Positions 1-12,000 of a stretch of DNA of 60,182 nucleotides are shown piece after piece. The DNA is from Candidatus Fraserbacteria bacterium (lineage in GTDB: Bacteria; Bipolaricaulota; Bipolaricaulia; RBG-16-55-9): NCBI GenBank assembly GCA_037443265.1, contig JBBIOR010000011.1:1-60182 (forward strand), given 5' to 3'. Made by a program: the position numbers. Each line of letters opens with the position of its first letter. The first letter of the stretch is position 1.

Positions 1-3000
1 GCCGCTCAGCCGGGAGATACCGTTAAAGTACGTGAGGGCCTCTACAAAGAGAATCTCCGCATCAGCAAGAAGATCACGCTTCAAGGGGAAGGTGCTGATC
101 GCGTCCGCATCGAGCCTAGTGACCCCGAAAGCCCCACTCTGAGCATCGAATCTCTAGCCACAAAACAAGGAAAGTTCGAGGTGCTCGTTCAAGGAGTGGT
201 CATCCGCGGATTCACCATCCAGCCCGGCAAAGTGGCCGTGCTCATCGGGAACGCCGGGGCAACTCTTGAGGATAATCGCATCGTAGGAGAGGGAGATGGC
301 ATCTGGGCCTTCGTGTTCCTCTCGGATCTCCCCATCACGATCCTGGAAAACGAGATCGAGGGAGCCCCAAGTGGCCTCCTCAGCCACGCAGGAATTCGCG
401 TAGGTGGAGGCGCCATTCCCGTCTTGATCTCAAACAACCGGATCGTCCGCAAGGCCGTAGGAATCAGCGTCGGAGGCTTCGTAGGCATGAAGGCAGAGCT
501 TCGCCAGAACACGATCCATCTCAGCGGCACCGGGATCTCCATTAGCGGCCTCGGCGGCCACGTCCTGATTGAAGAGAACCGCCTCCTCTCAAATCGCGGA
601 ACGGGTCTTCTTCTAATGCAGGGGCCTCAAGTCGAGATAAAGCGCAACTTTGTCTCTGGCAGCCTACTGTGGGGTCTGGCCCTCTGGCAGCGCCCGTGCT
701 TTGACACGCAGCCCCAGTTCCAGTTCGAAGGAACCGTTCATGGCTCAGAAAACCAGTTCCAGCAGAATCATCAGGATCTCTGCCCCGCAGACTATCCTTG
801 GCCCGCCGGCTTCCTCCAGCAAGAGCCTTGACGATTCTCTGATTCAGACAATATACTGAAGAAAGCCAGCGGAAGCGTCTGGGGGCGAGAGCATGACGAG
901 CGACTTGGCAGAGAAAGCATGTGTCCCCTGCAAGGGAGGAGTGCCTCCTCTTAAGGGCGAAGAGCTGAAAGCGCTCTGGGCAAAGCTCGATAGCAGCTGG
1001 CAGGTCATCGAGGAGCATCATCTGGAGAAGGCATTCAAATTCAAAAATTTTCGACAGGCGCTGGATTTTGTGGTCAAAGTGGGAGAGCTGGCCGAAGAGC
1101 AGGGCCACCATCCCGATATTTATTTGAGCTGGGGAAAAGTTAAGATCACCATCTGGACCCACAAGATCGATGGCCTCACCGAGAGCGACTTCATCCTCGC
1201 TGCCAAGATCGATAGATTATTCTAAAGCGCGCTCCGGAAAAGCCTGAGCCAGCGTTTGACGCGCCAGCAGAATCCCAAGCAGCACCAGAGCCCCTCCCGC
1301 CGCTTGCATCCCCCCAGAGGCTCGCGGAGCAGAACCCAGGCCAGAAGAGCGGCCATCACGGGCTGCAACAGTAAAGCCACAGACGTAAACGAGGCCGGAA
1401 GATACGCCAGGGCATACGCGATGAGCCCCTGCCCGCCAGTGTGCGAGATCCAGGCCAGCCCTACCAGCACTGCCCAGCCGTCCAGGGTCTCTGCGATGAG
1501 ACTCTCCCGGAAGAGGAGCGCCATGAAAAACAGAGCGATGCACGTGACGAGTCCGCTGCCGGCCATGACGCGGGCCGTGGTCAAAGAAGCCCTCAGTCTC
1601 TTGATGCACAGGATGTACCCGGCATAGAACCCAGCAGTCAGCAATCCCAAGCCATCCCCCAGCACGTGCTGCGGACTCAGCCGAAAGCTGGCACTGATGA
1701 CCAACGTGGCTCCCCCAAGCGCCAGCACCAATCCCGTAATGAAGCGTATGCTCACGAAGATGGGCGCGAAGGCGATGCCAACAGCCCCAAGCAGCAGGGC
1801 CAACAGGGCCGATCTTGATGGAGGCATGTTTAGAGCCTGGCAGAGTCTAGCTGCCGCGAACGTCTTCAGCAAGTGTGATCTGCATCCTAGTCACAGCGGC
1901 CAGAATTCACTATGTTGAGATCAAGTCTCGGCAGAGGGGGTGAAGTAGGTGAAAGGGAAGGCCAAGAAGAAAAGCCCGAAGAAGGCCGCCAAGAAGAGCT
2001 CGAAGAAGGGGAAGAAGTAGCTCTGCCGCAGCCAGCTGGTGTTGCGAAAGGCCACCACGGATAGACGGTGGCCTTTCGCATTTCTCACGGCGCAAAGACG
2101 ACTGTCCTTGGCTCTGCCCATCGCTGGCGATAGCCTCCCTCCGCCTTGAATAGCTTTCACCCATTTGCGGGAAGGCGCGTCACCGTCTTAGGGGCCGGCA
2201 AGACCGGCCGAGCCGTCGCGCGCTTCCTCGCCCCGCAGAAGGCCCATGTCTTTGTGAGTGATCGGGCAGAGCTTCCCCCTCTGCTGAAAGAGGAGTTTTC
2301 CAAGCTGGGCATCGAGTACGAGCAAGGTGGCCACAGTGAGCGCGCTCTTCAAGCAGATCTGATCATCCCCTCTCCGGGTGTCCCGGCCTCTTCTCCCGCG
2401 CTTGTTGAGGCCCACAGGCGAGGCATTCCCATTTGGGGCGAGCTGGAGCTGGCCTATCGCCTCTGTCCCAGCGAGAAGATCATCGCCGTCACAGGCACTG
2501 TCGGCAAGACGACCACCACCCATCTCATAGCAGAGCTCCTCAAAGCGCGCGGTTATCCCGTGGTAGTCGCAGGCAACATCGGAGAGCCCTTCATCTCTCA
2601 ACTGCCAAAGATCCGCACTAAAACCATCGTCGTCTTGGAAGTGAGCAGCTATCAACTAGAGCAGGTCGAGCTCTTTCGGCCCCATATCGGAGTCTTCACG
2701 CGTTTTGCGCCGCATCACTTAGATCGTCATGGCAGCCTTGAGAGATATTTCTCAACCAAGTGCCGGCTGTTCGCCCAGCAAAGCGAAAGTGATTTCGCCG
2801 TGGTACATCGTGACATTGAGCTTCCCCGCTGGGTGCAAGCCCGGGTCTTCCGGTTCTCCGCTGACGAGTTGCAAGAGTTGGAGTTGCCCACTCATCAGCG
2901 AGAGAATCTGGCCGCCGCCCTGCGAGCCGCTTGCTGGATCGATGCTCAAATCACCCTAAAGCATCTGGATTTGAAAAGAGCGCTCCAGCTTCCCCATCGC

Positions 3001-9000: not shown

Positions 9001-12000
9001 GCACGGGCTCGAGAAGGGGGTGGTGGTGGACATCGGCGAGACGACCGCCTCCATCAAGCGGGCCATCGAAGAGGCCGAAAACATGGCCGACGTGCGCATC
9101 GACCGTGTCTACGCCGGCATCGCCGGCAAGCACATCAGTTCCATCAACAACTCCGGCACCGTCAGCATCTCGCGGGAAAATCGCACCATCACCGTCGATG
9201 ATGTCCGCCGGGTCATCGAGACAGCCCAAGCGATCCAGCTCACTCCCGATTCCGAGCTCATTCACGTCATCCCCCGCCAATACATCGTCGACGGCCAGGA
9301 GGGCATCACGGATCCTGTGGGCATGACTGGCACCCGGCTCGAAGTCGATGTGCACATCGTGGCGGGTTCTATTACAGCCGTCCACAACATCTATCGCTGT
9401 GTGAACAATCTGGGCATTGAAGTGGAGCAGATCGTATTGCAGCCCTTGGCCTCCAGCTACGCGGTGCTCACGGAGGCCGAGAAGGAGCTGGGTGTGGCGC
9501 TCATGGACATCGGTGGAGGAACGACGGATATTGCCATCTTCCGGCGGGGGGACATCTGGTTCTCGAAAGTCCTTCCCATCGCCGGGGAGCAGATCACCAA
9601 CGACATCACCGTGGGCCTCAAGGTCGAGTATCAAGAGGCCGAACGGATCAAGCGCACCGAGGGCCTGCCGCGCGTGGACGAAGTGAGCGGCGAAGAGCGC
9701 TTTGAGATTACCACCATCAGCGGCGAGAAGAAGAGCGTCAGCAAGAGGAAGCTGGCCAAGATCATCGAGCCCAGGCTCGAAGAGCTCTTTGATTTGGCCA
9801 TGGGCGAGATTGAGGACGCCGGATACAGGGATCTCATTCCGGCGGGCCTTGTGCTCACCGGAGGGACAGCGCTGCTCAAGGGCCTGCCGGAGTTCATTCA
9901 GGAGCGCTATAATGTGGCCGTGCGACGGGGCAAGACCCCCCAAGGCATCCACGGACTGCGCGATATCGTCGAAAGCCCCATCTATGCCACGGTCATCGGC
10001 CTGCTCAAGTACGCCTTGGAGTCCCGGGAGTATCACATGCGCTACGGAGACAGCGCTCGGCATCGGGTGGACGCCAAGCGGCGCTGGTGGACGACGAACA
10101 ACGGCCGAGGGGAGAATTCGATCCTGGTGCGGGTCCTGCGCTGGCTCAACTCTATCTTTCGTGGCGCAGCCCGCTAGCGTGGAAAGGGGCGGACATGGAG
10201 GGCCATCGCCGTAACGGACTGGCACGCATCCGGGTCATCGGCGTCGGCGGCGGAGGCTGCAATGCCGTCAATCGCATGATGAAGGCCAAGATCAAGGACG
10301 TGGAGCTTGTGGCCGTCAACACTGACGCTCAGGTGCTGGAAGTGATCGAAGCCCATAAAGCCTTGCAGATCGGCGCCAAGCTCACTGGAGGCTTAGGAGC
10401 GGGGGGAAACCCCGAGATCGGACGCAAGGCCGCCGAAGAATCCGAGGCGGAGATCCGCGACCTTTTGGAAGACGTGGACATGGTCTTCATCACCACCGGC
10501 ATGGGGGGCGGCACGGGCACGGGAGCCTCTCCCGTGATCGCGCGTCTGGCGCGGGAAGCGGGCATTCTGACTGTGGGCATTGTGACTAAACCCTTCTCGT
10601 TCGAGGGGCACCATAGGCAAGAGCGTGCTAAGAAGGGCATAGAAGAATTGCGCCAGCATGTCGATACTCTGATCGCCATTCCCAATGATCGCCTGCTGAA
10701 AGTCGCTCCGGCGGACATCACCCTCATGCAGGCCTTTGAACTGGCCGATGATATTCTGCGCCAGGGAGTGCAGGGGATCACGGATCTAATCACGACGCCC
10801 GGTCTGATCAATCGCGACTTCGCCGACGTGGAGGCGACCATGAGGGGAGCCGGCACAGCCATGATGGGCATCGGCCAAGGCGAAGGCGAAGGCCGCACCC
10901 GCGAGGCCGCCCGAGGGGCCATCACCAGCCCCCTGCTCGAAGGGTCCATCGAAGGGGCTCAGCGCGTCATCCTCAACATCACCGGAGGCTTAGACCTAAC
11001 CCTTGAGGAAGTCACGGAGGCCGCACAGCTCATCCGTGAGGCCGTCTCAGAGTCGGCCGACATCTTCTTTGGGGCCACCGTCAAAGAGGGCTTCGATAAG
11101 CTCAAACTGACGGTGATCGCCACAGGCTTCAAGCAGGTGGAGGAGCAGGAACTCGAAGATCTGGAGACGGAAGAGGAGCTGCCGGTCTATCATCCTCCCG
11201 TCAGTAGTCGCAGCCTGCGCCCCCGTGATCGCCATCGATTGGGGGATTGGGACGTGCCCACCTTCATCCGCCGCCGAGGGCACGATCACGACGAAGAGGA
11301 CTAGCGCTAATCCATCCGAATGGGCATGCACACATAGAGGAACCCCTGATCTTCTTCTCCCTCTAGGGGCTCCAACAGCCCGGCGCTCTCGGCGTCTTTG
11401 AGCCACAGGACCACTTCTGCCCCTTTCATGCGTCGAAGCGCGTCAATCAAATACTCCCCGCGGAAAGAGATCGTGATGGCAGGCGCGGGCTTAAGGAGGG
11501 GAACGCGCTCCTCCGTGTGGCCCTTCTCGGCCGAAGACGATTTAATCCAGAGCGAAGCATCGCGCGATTCCAAAATGACCGCCCCGGACTCCTCCGCGGT
11601 GGTAATCTGAGCCCGCTGCAGGGCACTTAAGAAAGCCTCGCGCTTGATGTGCAGAGAAACGGGGTTGTCCTTGGGGATGACCCGCTCAAAATCTGGATAT
11701 TCTTCTTGAATGAGCCGGGCGATGAAGAGCACTTGATGGGTCAAGAAGAAGAGATGTCCTTCCCCCTGGGCGATCCTCACTTGTTCATCGTCCAGCGTGC
11801 CCAGAATTCCCTGAAGATCCCTGAGGGCGTCCGCATCAATGAGGAATTCCCCCTCCGGCACGGAGGACTCAAGCTGTTCTTCTTTCAAGGCGAGGCGATA
11901 CCCATTGGTGGCCACCATCTTGATCGTTCTTCCCGACATCAGAATATCCACGCCGGTGAGGTTCAATCGGGATGTCTCCTTGGCACTCATGGCCGCAAAC

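Follow-up and report, generated by a model that had tools for sequence, protein, structure and literature searches.

One FtsW-FtsI pair and no recognisable Rod genes in nearly all Bipolaricaulota, a phylum whose imaged members are rods

The stretch of DNA analysed here (the window, 60,182 nt) comes from a Candidatus Fraserbacteria genome (GCA_037443265.1, hereafter G000) and holds an intact dcw cluster, in which Pfam matches place every gene from murD to ftsZ on the forward strand. The cluster begins with murD (2146..3459), for a Mur ligase with a MurD N-terminal domain (PF21799, PF21377, PF08245), followed by ftsW (3519..4811), which encodes the genome's only SEDS glycan polymerase (PF01098, E 4e-96). 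The latter scores above the FtsW cut-off of TIGR02614 (353.6 against 337.5) and below the RodA cut-off of TIGR02210 (269 against 336.7), and it clusters with other dcw FtsW proteins, separate from RodA. Next come murG (4675..5925; PF03033 and PF04101), murC (5795..7168; PF01225, PF08245 and PF02875 plus its dcw position), murB (7095..8108; PF02873 and PF01565) and ftsQ (8105..8797; POTRA_1 PF08478 at E 6.9e-5 plus position). The product of ftsA (8807..10177; PF14450 and PF02491) is the sole actin-fold protein found besides DnaK, and ftsZ (10087..11304, probable start 10195; PF00091 and PF12327) is a single copy, with no paralog found in G000. Further along lie ddl, for D-Ala-D-Ala ligase (30346..31392, forward strand; PF07478 and PF01820), and two Mur ligases (PF01225, PF08245 and PF02875 in both) that are putatively named by elimination: MurF (22559..23926, reverse strand) and MurE (31392..32858, forward strand), the last being 54% identical to the Mur ligase behind the mre-recG locus of another genome, G052.

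Across G000 the lipid II pathway is complete (murA-G, mraY, murJ, ddl and alr), with mraY on contig C1, murA on C6 and murJ on C2 all exceeding their NCBIfam cut-offs. The divisome set comprises FtsQLB, FtsA, FtsZ and one FtsW-FtsI pair, contig C35 carrying mraW-ftsL-ftsI and contig C10 ftsB/divIC. FtsI has the motifs SxxK287, SxN342 and KSG488, and the FtsW loop reads LPSAYNDF at the site of the aspartate that is catalytic in other SEDS proteins. Unfiltered custom HMMs run over all six frames of G000 returned no MreB, MreC, MreD, PBP2, RodA or class A PBP (aPBP) and matched only DnaK, FtsA, FtsW and FtsI, and motif searches of G000 for MurI, UppP and FtsK gave nothing convincing. The genome-wide survey's note had described just such a genome, with a full lipid II pathway, a divisome, one SEDS protein, one transpeptidase and neither elongation genes nor class A PBPs, and Pfam, NCBIfam and the unfiltered HMMs bear it out. 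The combination of a lipid II pathway, at least one SEDS protein, at least one class B PBP and no class A PBP places G000, by gene content, among the peptidoglycan-intermediate (PGi) bacteria, a group characterised by thin peptidoglycan of low abundance.

The same FtsW-FtsI-only pattern was seen in 183 of 184 Bipolaricaulota genomes, 71 of which are at least 90% complete and at most 5% contaminated. The note had extended the pattern to the whole phylum from 61 genomes; this holds for the 183 and fails for G052 (family f8), which lay outside those 61. The profile searches are homology-based, a loose first look, and they recovered all 10 walled bacterial controls as well as the divergent genes of G052. 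The transglycosylase family PF00912 matched one genome in 184, and MreB-level scores (417 and 439 bits) came only from G052, the next best being 84.5 bits. Neither MreB nor PF00912 was found in the 50 genomes of family f6, and the one-contig genomes G005 and G006 gave no second actin beyond two low matches each. SEDS matches numbered one in 165 genomes, two in nine and none in 10, and transpeptidase matches one in 168, more in five and none in 11; the extra matches outside G052 are split or duplicated ftsW or ftsI genes, or one sub-cut-off hit. These counts support FtsW-FtsI as the only recognisable polymerase pair of the Rod-less members. FtsZ and an amidase were each present in 26 of 26 genomes. 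In a set of five, MreC was found in one, and DivIVA, MltG and DacA in none; L,D-transpeptidase (YkuD) occurred in one of the five, G052. SpoIID was not found outside G052, nor M23 in G000 or G051.

G052 (93% complete) carries mreB, mreC, an mreD-like ORF, pbp2, rodA and a second mreB, with mreBCD-pbp2 located between def and recG. In 22 of 30 loci def and recG adjoin directly, and no replacement gene lies in those 22. This empty site shows that the absence of MreBCD and PBP2 is a true gap. Contamination was rejected as the source of the Rod genes, since the flanking def, fmt, recG, gatC and Mur ligase are 51-60% identical to those of G000; the Rod locus has a GC content of 0.58, and rodA is native. 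Native origin was in turn rejected for the aPBP of G052, a probable Poribacteria contaminant: its contig has a GC content of 0.49, the protein is 73% identical to a Poribacteria PBP1A, and none of the contig's ORFs matches G000 at E 1e-20. Class A PBPs are thus probably absent from all 184 genomes, and with the empty def-recG site this makes the case for FtsW-FtsI as sole recognisable pair stronger than had been claimed. No donor for a recent transfer of the Rod genes was seen, MreB being at most 54% identical to the best 80 of a pattern-limited scan and PBP2 at most 43% to the best 120 listed of 7999 scored candidates; an old transfer may have taken place. Both trees put G052 inside the phylum. 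Its placement as deepest branch is not the best tree, yet it is not rejected (AU p 0.066) in a quick tree that covered 20 of 41 taxa and had only remote outgroups (Actinomycetota, Ruminococcaceae). A position inside the phylum requires several losses or an old regain. Class A PBPs would have been lost in the phylum ancestor; loss of the Rod genes would have followed in one or a few events, with family f8 keeping them.

Two FtsZ matches were obtained in 117 of the 184 genomes, the second copy lying outside dcw. It is full length, with GTPase and C-terminal domains, keeps the NLDFAD (T7) loop and the FtsA-binding tail (D-x-D-I/V-P-x-F-L-R-R), scores 345 against a TIGR00065 cut-off of 295 and forms its own clade (support 100/99). 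Judged by sequence it is a true FtsZ, with altered G1 and signature loops (GxGG has become GDGG in some copies, and genus g18 has GKGTG). It is not a general Rod substitute, because it is absent from families f1, f2 and f4 and from nearly all of f3 and f9, which also lack Rod genes. In the f6/f10/f11 clade, which holds Bipolaricaulis, it bears an extra N-terminal domain with a putative DnaA-domain-I-like KH fold; every named carrier of this domain is a Bipolaricaulota FtsZ. The domain model (pLDDT 86) was compared with the DnaA domain I, DciA and DnaX-C families (type II KH). Its top Foldseek match is DnaA domain I (4tps_D, E 0.011, TM 0.67, probability 1.0), and the VIA Z values, both below 8, are 7.5 for DciA (rmsd 2.8, 79 aligned) and 7.2 for DnaA domain I (rmsd 2.8, 81 aligned). 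By sequence, Pfam matches fall below cut-off, the hhalign probability is 10%, and five of 14 domains score above the best of 280 shuffles. Relocation of DnaA domain I onto this FtsZ was rejected, as DnaA of G005 retains its domain I. Contigs from four RNA libraries cover its gene, but this does not demonstrate transcription, coverage being flat across neighbours and on both strands. In the Bipolaricaulis-holding clade the second FtsZ is the foremost candidate for a scaffold that does the steering; that it steers a non-septal phase or polar extensions in f6, f10 and f11 is a tentative suggestion, which we think rather unlikely.

Bactofilins, of a 240-280 aa type that we take to be YhbE/F-like, were found in 61 of 75 genomes, G052 among them; since 14 lack them, including G000, they were rejected as a general Rod replacement. 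In 22 of 26 genomes there is an SLH protein that combines a signal peptide, a coiled coil and a hydrophobic anchor at the C-terminus, and csaB and DUF5693 lie directly upstream of mraW-ftsL-ftsI in both G000 and G052. The SLH protein, csaB with DUF5693, and the amidase are signs of a wall round the whole cell. Many conserved envelope ORFs match no Pfam family. The split SLH tether of Omp-alpha/Omp-beta with CsaB has been reported for Bipolaricaulota (10.1101/2021.05.31.446380), and the split SLH tether was observed in the present genomes too.

Rod shape in the phylum, which the note had called rod-shaped, rests on imaging of two organisms, G000 not among them. The members that were imaged, planktonic or from vent fluid, are rods whose length nearly doubles before a septum appears at mid-cell (10.1101/2025.11.21.689855, section 6; passages of PMC6092417). 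The toga forms even-width tubes of 0.2-0.3 um, up to 10 um long, with a 6.25 nm hexagonal lattice, and the central rod is 0.4 um wide. Cells collapse to 0.066 um when dried (passages of PMC6092417). The terms peptidoglycan, cell wall, MreB and FtsZ do not occur in the isolation preprint (10.1101/2025.11.21.689855), whose description is confined to membrane-like layers plus a surface lattice. Strain J31, whose genome is apparently missing from the 184, is reported to be ampicillin-resistant and has the same bipolar morphology as the organism of Hao 2018. The shape and division list for that organism gives CcmA, FtsI, FtsZ, FtsA and FtsQ, and not MreB; the 'bifunctional PBP' named in passages of the same work (PMC6092417), which had seemed to conflict with the absence of PF00912, is FtsI in its own supplement. 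Table S1 of Atwal 2021 (PMC8406291) lists one ftsW, one ftsI and no rodA, mrdA or aPBP for Bipolaricaulis 'bana', and both Bipolaricaulis rows lack rodA, mrdA and aPBP, without comment. This table has false negatives, such as zero aPBP for Deinococcus (PMC8406291); PF00912 matches our control D. radiodurans.

At the genome level these bacteria have no peptidoglycan polymerase-crosslinker other than FtsW-FtsI, and we therefore infer that this pair would make both septum and side wall. That it does so under FtsZ/FtsA guidance is the reading towards which we lean slightly. Lipid II would be made and flipped by the Mur/MraY/MurG/MurJ pathway, whose genes are all present. FtsA-tethered FtsZ filaments and FtsQLB would carry FtsWI round the cell, laying glycan in hoops, and in a mid-cell zone opened by the one conserved amidase non-constricting synthesis would lengthen a cylinder of inherited width, until the same machine constricts after the lengthening phase. 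FtsZ-guided wall synthesis is the basis for the hoop and mid-cell steps. The toga would be tied to this wall by the SLH/coiled-coil protein and CsaB, for which the genes are present and the function is taken by analogy. Several observations count against an FtsW-FtsI wall of this kind: the published descriptions report neither peptidoglycan nor any wall chemistry for the phylum, the aPBP-less bacteria studied to date are round or irregular (PMC8406291), neither the second FtsZ nor bactofilin is general across Rod-less members, and G052 falls inside the phylum. The ampicillin resistance of J31 would be unexpected if one FtsI makes the whole load-bearing wall, although the drug might decay at 55 C or be kept out of the cell, or the enzyme might have low affinity for it.

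This resistance, the even-width lattice tubes, the lack of a described wall layer and the collapse on drying would sit well with a toga or S-layer lattice, held by the Omp-alpha-like SLH protein, that itself shapes the rod, the FtsW-FtsI wall being thin or mainly septal as in the Chlamydia ring. The scarcity of remodelling enzymes outside G052 (no L,D-transpeptidase, SpoIID, MltG or DacA, and M23 missing from G000 and G051) and the reported Omp-alpha/Omp-beta and CsaB point the same way. However, an SLH/CsaB tether requires a wall polymer as anchor, a body wider than the tube implies that something internal sets its width, and Rod-positive G052 shares the tether genes; we regard this explanation as possible, though not probable. 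Because the absences come from homology searches, and many conserved envelope ORFs lack a Pfam family, elongation could also be driven by a cytoskeleton or glycan polymerase that profiles fail to recognise, being unrelated or too far diverged. This is improbable, since the same searches recover the controls and the divergent G052 genes, the unfiltered HMMs on G000 are empty, and the mre site is cleanly vacant. We give similarly little credence to a sampling mismatch, in which G000 and most other Rod-less members would be cocci or irregular cells, as other FtsW-FtsI-only bacteria are, and the cultured rod would carry Rod genes like G052. The narrow imaging, the existence of a Rod-positive lineage, the apparent absence of J31 from the survey and the lack of a second FtsZ in the family of G000, and of bactofilin and M23 in G000 itself, allow for it, but the curated list of the Hao organism, both Bipolaricaulis rows, the 50 f6 genomes and the shared bipolar morphology of J31 speak against it. 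Returning to wall growth by FtsW-FtsI, the pair might be time-shared by two FtsZ systems, one that uses the dcw copy and serves septation, and one that uses the second copy and serves side wall or polar extension. The latter would be coupled to chromosome replication through the DnaA-domain-I-like module, which was found fused to FtsZ only in Bipolaricaulota. Such a third route to a rod, without MreB and class A PBPs, is speculative and doubtful.

In the textbook view, rods need MreB-guided RodA-PBP2 or polar class A PBPs, and aPBP-less bacteria are sheltered, misshapen host dwellers. Francisella is not known to have MreB. FtsW-FtsI-only gene content already has precedent in Francisella/Allofrancisella and some Buchnera, with one ftsW, one ftsI and no rodA, mrdA or aPBP (PMC8406291 Table S1, which has no MreB column), and FtsI is given as the sole large PBP of F. 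tularensis (PMC9877522). In Bipolaricaulota, by contrast, this state is nearly phylum-wide, and unlike PGi bacteria, which are host-associated and, where studied, round or irregular, Bipolaricaulota are free-living and their imaged cells are regular elongating rods. The polar growers of Hyphomicrobiales/Rhizobiales and Actinomycetota are also rods without MreB; they keep class A PBPs and rely on polar organisers, DivIVA among them, and on many L,D-transpeptidases, whereas in Bipolaricaulota no aPBP was found apart from the probable contaminant and, in the set of five, no DivIVA and, outside G052, no L,D-transpeptidase. The Agrobacterium rows likewise show one SEDS protein and one class B PBP, but two class A PBPs are kept (PMC8406291). 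Chlamydia, with its ring-only peptidoglycan, may share a scant side wall, and differs in having an MreB-directed ring, no FtsZ and two SEDS proteins, as against FtsZ in 26 of 26 genomes, no MreB and one SEDS protein. A second tubulin-family gene outside dcw recalls the extra FtsZ/CetZ copies elsewhere (Agrobacterium FtsZ1/3, haloarchaeal FtsZ2 and CetZ), of which CetZ is a precedent for a rod-shape-setting protein of this family; the Bipolaricaulota copy differs as a true FtsZ with an FtsA-binding tail and, in f6/f10/f11, the putative KH-fold domain. Thermotoga maritima has MreB and, in our control set, a PF00912 match, in which it differs from Bipolaricaulota. Its phylum, Thermotogota, is the sister group and shares the toga, the split Omp-alpha/Omp-beta tether and CsaB (10.1101/2021.05.31.446380). 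Clostridioides difficile, likewise a rod, does without one of the canonical synthase systems and has shifted its work elsewhere, but as a mirror image: what it is missing is the canonical FtsW/FtsI, the sole pair of Bipolaricaulota (passages of PMC10693644). In a literature search that was thin on subscription papers and preprint supplements, no paper was found stating Rod or aPBP loss in Bipolaricaulota or describing their second FtsZ, and it is this second FtsZ that is new here.

In a phylum that branches deeply and is free-living, nearly every member has lost both elongation machines and retains only the enzyme pair for division, yet the imaged ones are rods; this points to rod formation by a route so far undescribed. 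Such an FtsW-FtsI-only phylum is a natural minimal cell-wall system, for which G052 serves as a within-phylum control that marks the former position of the lost genes and the second FtsZ, with its putative replication-type domain, offers a concrete protein for localisation. The cultured, deposited strain opens a test of whether the divisome alone can build and keep a cylinder, and of whether an outer protein lattice can replace peptidoglycan as the shape-setter.

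The genome that carries the window (1.69 Mb in 44 contigs, 88% complete; the window is its contig C11) has the genes to make and flip lipid II and the full set for a core divisome, together with one polymerase-crosslinker pair and a toga tether. A dcw cluster (genes for division and the cell wall) of the ordinary type occupies window positions 2146-11304 in the order murD, ftsW, murG, murC, murB, ftsQ, ftsA, ftsZ, and outside this cluster the window also contains ddl and two more Mur ligases. On other contigs, mraY, murA and murJ pass NCBIfam cut-offs, and alr with a secreted amidase (C16), mraW-ftsL-ftsI (C35), bamA-skp-fabZ (C36) and ftsB/divIC (C10) are present. 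The sole SEDS protein scores as FtsW rather than RodA, and FtsI has three intact active-site motifs and no glycosyltransferase domain. HMMs for MreB, MreC, MreD, PBP2, RodA and class A PBPs (aPBPs), built from the Rod-positive genome G052 and named Actinomycetota sequences and run with filters off on 13,889 six-frame ORFs, detected none of these proteins and recovered DnaK, FtsA, FtsW and FtsI only. This search upholds the claim of the genome-wide survey's note that the genome has FtsW-FtsI alone, with neither Rod (MreBCD, RodA, PBP2) nor aPBP genes.

Where the dcw cluster ends, dnaN (window 11307-12506, minus strand) lies tail to tail with ftsZ and not beside dnaA, and a dnaN-like ORF occupies the same position in three genomes of family f5. 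Beside the dcw region (window 13601-22556 and 23931-25928) is a cluster that encodes large secreted proteins carrying PKD, CARDB and peptidase S55 domains; these proteins are surface-layer candidates. Contigs C43 and C44 have a GC content of 0.63 and 0.70 versus about 0.59 in the remainder, and the single SLT lytic transglycosylase match of the genome, on C44, may be of foreign origin.

The survey's note had extended the FtsW-FtsI-only pattern across the Bipolaricaulota. Among 184 genomes, three times the number surveyed there, it holds nearly everywhere; however, G052 has mreB, mreC, pbp2 and rodA. PF00912 was matched in one of the 184 genomes and in 10 of 10 walled bacterial controls. Matches to PF06723 occur in 182 genomes, with MreB-level scores (439 and 417 bits) in G052 alone; the best score elsewhere is 84.5 bits, and the frames are of DnaK and FtsA size. 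SEDS matches number one in 165 genomes, two in 9 and none in 10, and transpeptidase matches one in 168, two in 3, three in 2 and none in 11. When all extra matches outside G052 were inspected singly, those to SEDS proved to be a single ftsW broken in two pieces in six genomes, two complete ftsW copies, each in dcw context, in G149, and a match under the cut-off in G073, while those to the transpeptidase were FtsI fragments or a broken FtsI-like copy. The one-contig genomes G005 (96% complete), G006 (99%) and G128 (69%) have one SEDS protein and one transpeptidase each and, by profile searches, no MreB or aPBP. The loss of Rod genes and aPBPs is real and nearly phylum-wide, with G052 as a built-in control. 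Four related f9 genomes (G061, G062, G063 and G066) have one TGA within the ftsW match, probably reflecting a short C-terminus.

In G052, the only member of f8, mreB, mreC, an mreD-like membrane ORF (no family match) and pbp2 are consecutive on one contig, with rodA on a second and a further mreB on a third; its MreB, PBP2 and RodA meet NCBIfam cut-offs. The mre cassette sits between def-fmt and recG. In the genome of the window, def and recG are head to head and directly abutting, with no assembly gap there, and a def-recG junction exists in 22 of 30 def loci (f1, f3, f6, f10 and f11), the remainder being G052 itself and seven loci with different, mre-free neighbours. Likewise, the genes flanking rodA in G052 adjoin one another in the genome of the window. 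Since these flanking genes are shared with Rod-less genomes, the Rod contigs belong to G052 itself, and in the other genomes the Rod genes are truly missing. Between pbp2 and recG lies a membrane-type ORF of 177 aa that belongs to no known family (L037:13984-14517, G052 contig C14); it is unmatched in the genome of the window and is possibly part of the lost cassette. The aPBP of G052, 73% identical to a Poribacteria protein and encoded on a 6.4-kb contig (GC 0.49) with zero genes resembling those of the window's genome, is most likely a binning contaminant, and the entire phylum may lack class A PBPs.

A species tree from 29 proteins (5,082 columns) places G052 within the phylum, close to f7 and f9 (FastTree, 41 taxa), a placement repeated by a quick IQ-TREE run on 20 of the 41 taxa (SH-aLRT 94 and 98), and the AU test did not reach rejection of a G052-first tree (p 0.066). 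Its MreB is at most 54% identical to any relative among the 80 best matches of a pattern-limited scan, and its PBP2 at most 43% to any among the best 120 of 7999 scored candidates. Long residence of the Rod genes fits, since the relatives are all distant and the genes are spread over three loci. We read this as Rod genes being ancestral in the phylum and lost once or a few times. It is also possible that G052 regained them in the ancient past.

Cells of the cultured strain J31 are described as rods (0.4 x 0.8-2 um) that come close to doubling their length before a mid-cell septum divides them, with a polar toga (an outer protein layer) that carries a hexagonal lattice of 6.25 nm; the available sections of that description do not mention peptidoglycan, MreB or FtsZ, and report ampicillin resistance (10.1101/2025.11.21.689855). 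Hao et al. (PMC6092417) imaged planktonic rods with bipolar prosthecae, and their text names a 'bifunctional' PBP, which the survey's note had counted as conflicting with the absence of aPBPs. This conflict dissolves, since the same gene is entered as FtsI/PBP2 in their Data Set 2, which in its accessible part lists CcmA, FtsZ, FtsA and FtsQ, and not MreB. For Bipolaricaulis, the bare absence is already published as a table entry: two genomes lack rodA, mrdA and aPBPs in Table S1 of Atwal et al., with no discussion alongside in the accessible portion of the paper (PMC8406291).

DivIVA, MltG, DacA and L,D-transpeptidases are not Rod substitutes: the first three are each absent from all five Bipolaricaulota genomes tested, and L,D-transpeptidases, like SpoIID, occur among these in G052 only. 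Bactofilin-like proteins are found in 61 of 75 genomes (in G052, not in the genome of the window), an amidase in 26 of 26 and an SLH/coiled-coil/anchor protein in 22 of 26. The phylum's Omp-alpha/CsaB tether was previously known (10.1101/2021.05.31.446380). In both G052 (L080:2764-5663, contig C85) and the genome of the window (L077:6819-9602, contig C35), DUF5693-csaB lies immediately upstream of mraW-ftsL-ftsI, which links toga anchoring to the sole transpeptidase. No beta-barrel-like gene follows the SLH gene in the genome of the window (L360:5298-6023, contig C17). A secreted ORF that may be Omp-beta does so in G052, G142, G148 and G085. SLH proteins of the phylum are short except for a full OmpM-like protein with SLH and a long C-terminal part (L094, on the 1.3-kb contig C181 of G019), probably a contaminant.

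Unexpectedly, two full-length FtsZ matches were obtained for 117 of the 184 genomes: 4/4 in f5, 45/50 in f6, 1/1 in f7, 4/4 in f10 and 61/74 in f11, and rarely in f9 (1/19) and f3 (1/18, by match count alone), with none in f1 (nine genomes, that of the window among them), f2, f4 or G052. The second genes lie outside the dcw cluster among unrelated neighbours, and their products are 48-54% identical to the dcw FtsZ of the window, retaining the NLDFAD loop and C-terminal peptide. They form their own clade (100/99), and since the f5, f7 and f9 copies fall within it, the paralog is older than the families. In f6, f10 and f11 (L298:6573-7919, i.e. G005 C1:339572-340918, and 13 further loci, L299-L311), its N terminus bears a conserved domain about 85 residues long, with 12 invariant positions across 14 sequences; this domain is absent from the f5, f7 and f9 copies. 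Gene callers include it (products of 449-458 aa; every phylum-level name among them is Bipolaricaulota, one being Bipolaricaulis), and a search of 1.84 billion representative proteins detected it in 17 only, mostly short pieces. Its confidently predicted fold (helix-helix-strand-strand-helix-helix-strand) has DnaA domain I and DciA as best matches in two structure aligners, at modest scores; the sequence-level match is weak. A moved DnaA domain I was rejected, since DnaA of G005 retains domain I, and the FtsZ domain is thus an extra module. We found no literature on such an FtsZ. DnaA in the genome of the window (L369:6598-7668, C3:92597-93667; 357 aa) lacks domains I-II, starting just ahead of the ATPase domain with a good ribosome-binding site. 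Seven close metagenome relatives (69-87% identical) start at the same place, more distant relatives and G005 keep domain I, and no free-standing domain I ORF was found in this genome.

Any sacculus that these cells possess would have to be made wholly by FtsW-FtsI; as circumferential guides, FtsZ and FtsA alone were found. In the simplest model, which we favour by a narrow measure, FtsW-FtsI would synthesize wall hoop-wise in a mid-cell zone without constriction, and septation would follow. Perhaps the second FtsZ supplies separate tracks for the two phases in the clade that holds Bipolaricaulis. It is not the general answer, since f1-f4 lack both it and Rod genes; their cells may be shorter or round. 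The main rival, which we hold to be rather unlikely, is that the toga lattice bears the shape and the wall beneath is thin or mostly septal. The ampicillin resistance of J31 and a cryo-EM description silent, in its available sections, on a wall layer (10.1101/2025.11.21.689855) speak for it, as do the few kinds of remodelling enzymes. It is improbable that a polymerase of another kind makes the wall, and equally so that the imaged organisms fail to match the sequenced ones.

FtsW+FtsI-only sets are also listed for many Francisella strains, Allofrancisella, several Buchnera and Sphaerochaeta in the part of Table S1 of Atwal et al. available (PMC8406291), and a review, in the section concerned, gives the PBPs of F. 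tularensis as FtsI, DacD and DacB1 only (PMC9877522). The gene set of Bipolaricaulota thus has precedent. The literature found, with subscription journals thinly covered, holds no report of this set phylum-wide in free-living, regular rods, and no wall chemistry for Bipolaricaulota. The gene set itself is already known; what is unexpected is its presence in this kind of cell, the imaged members being free-living rods, and the FtsZ paralog of Bipolaricaulota is new and offers a lead.
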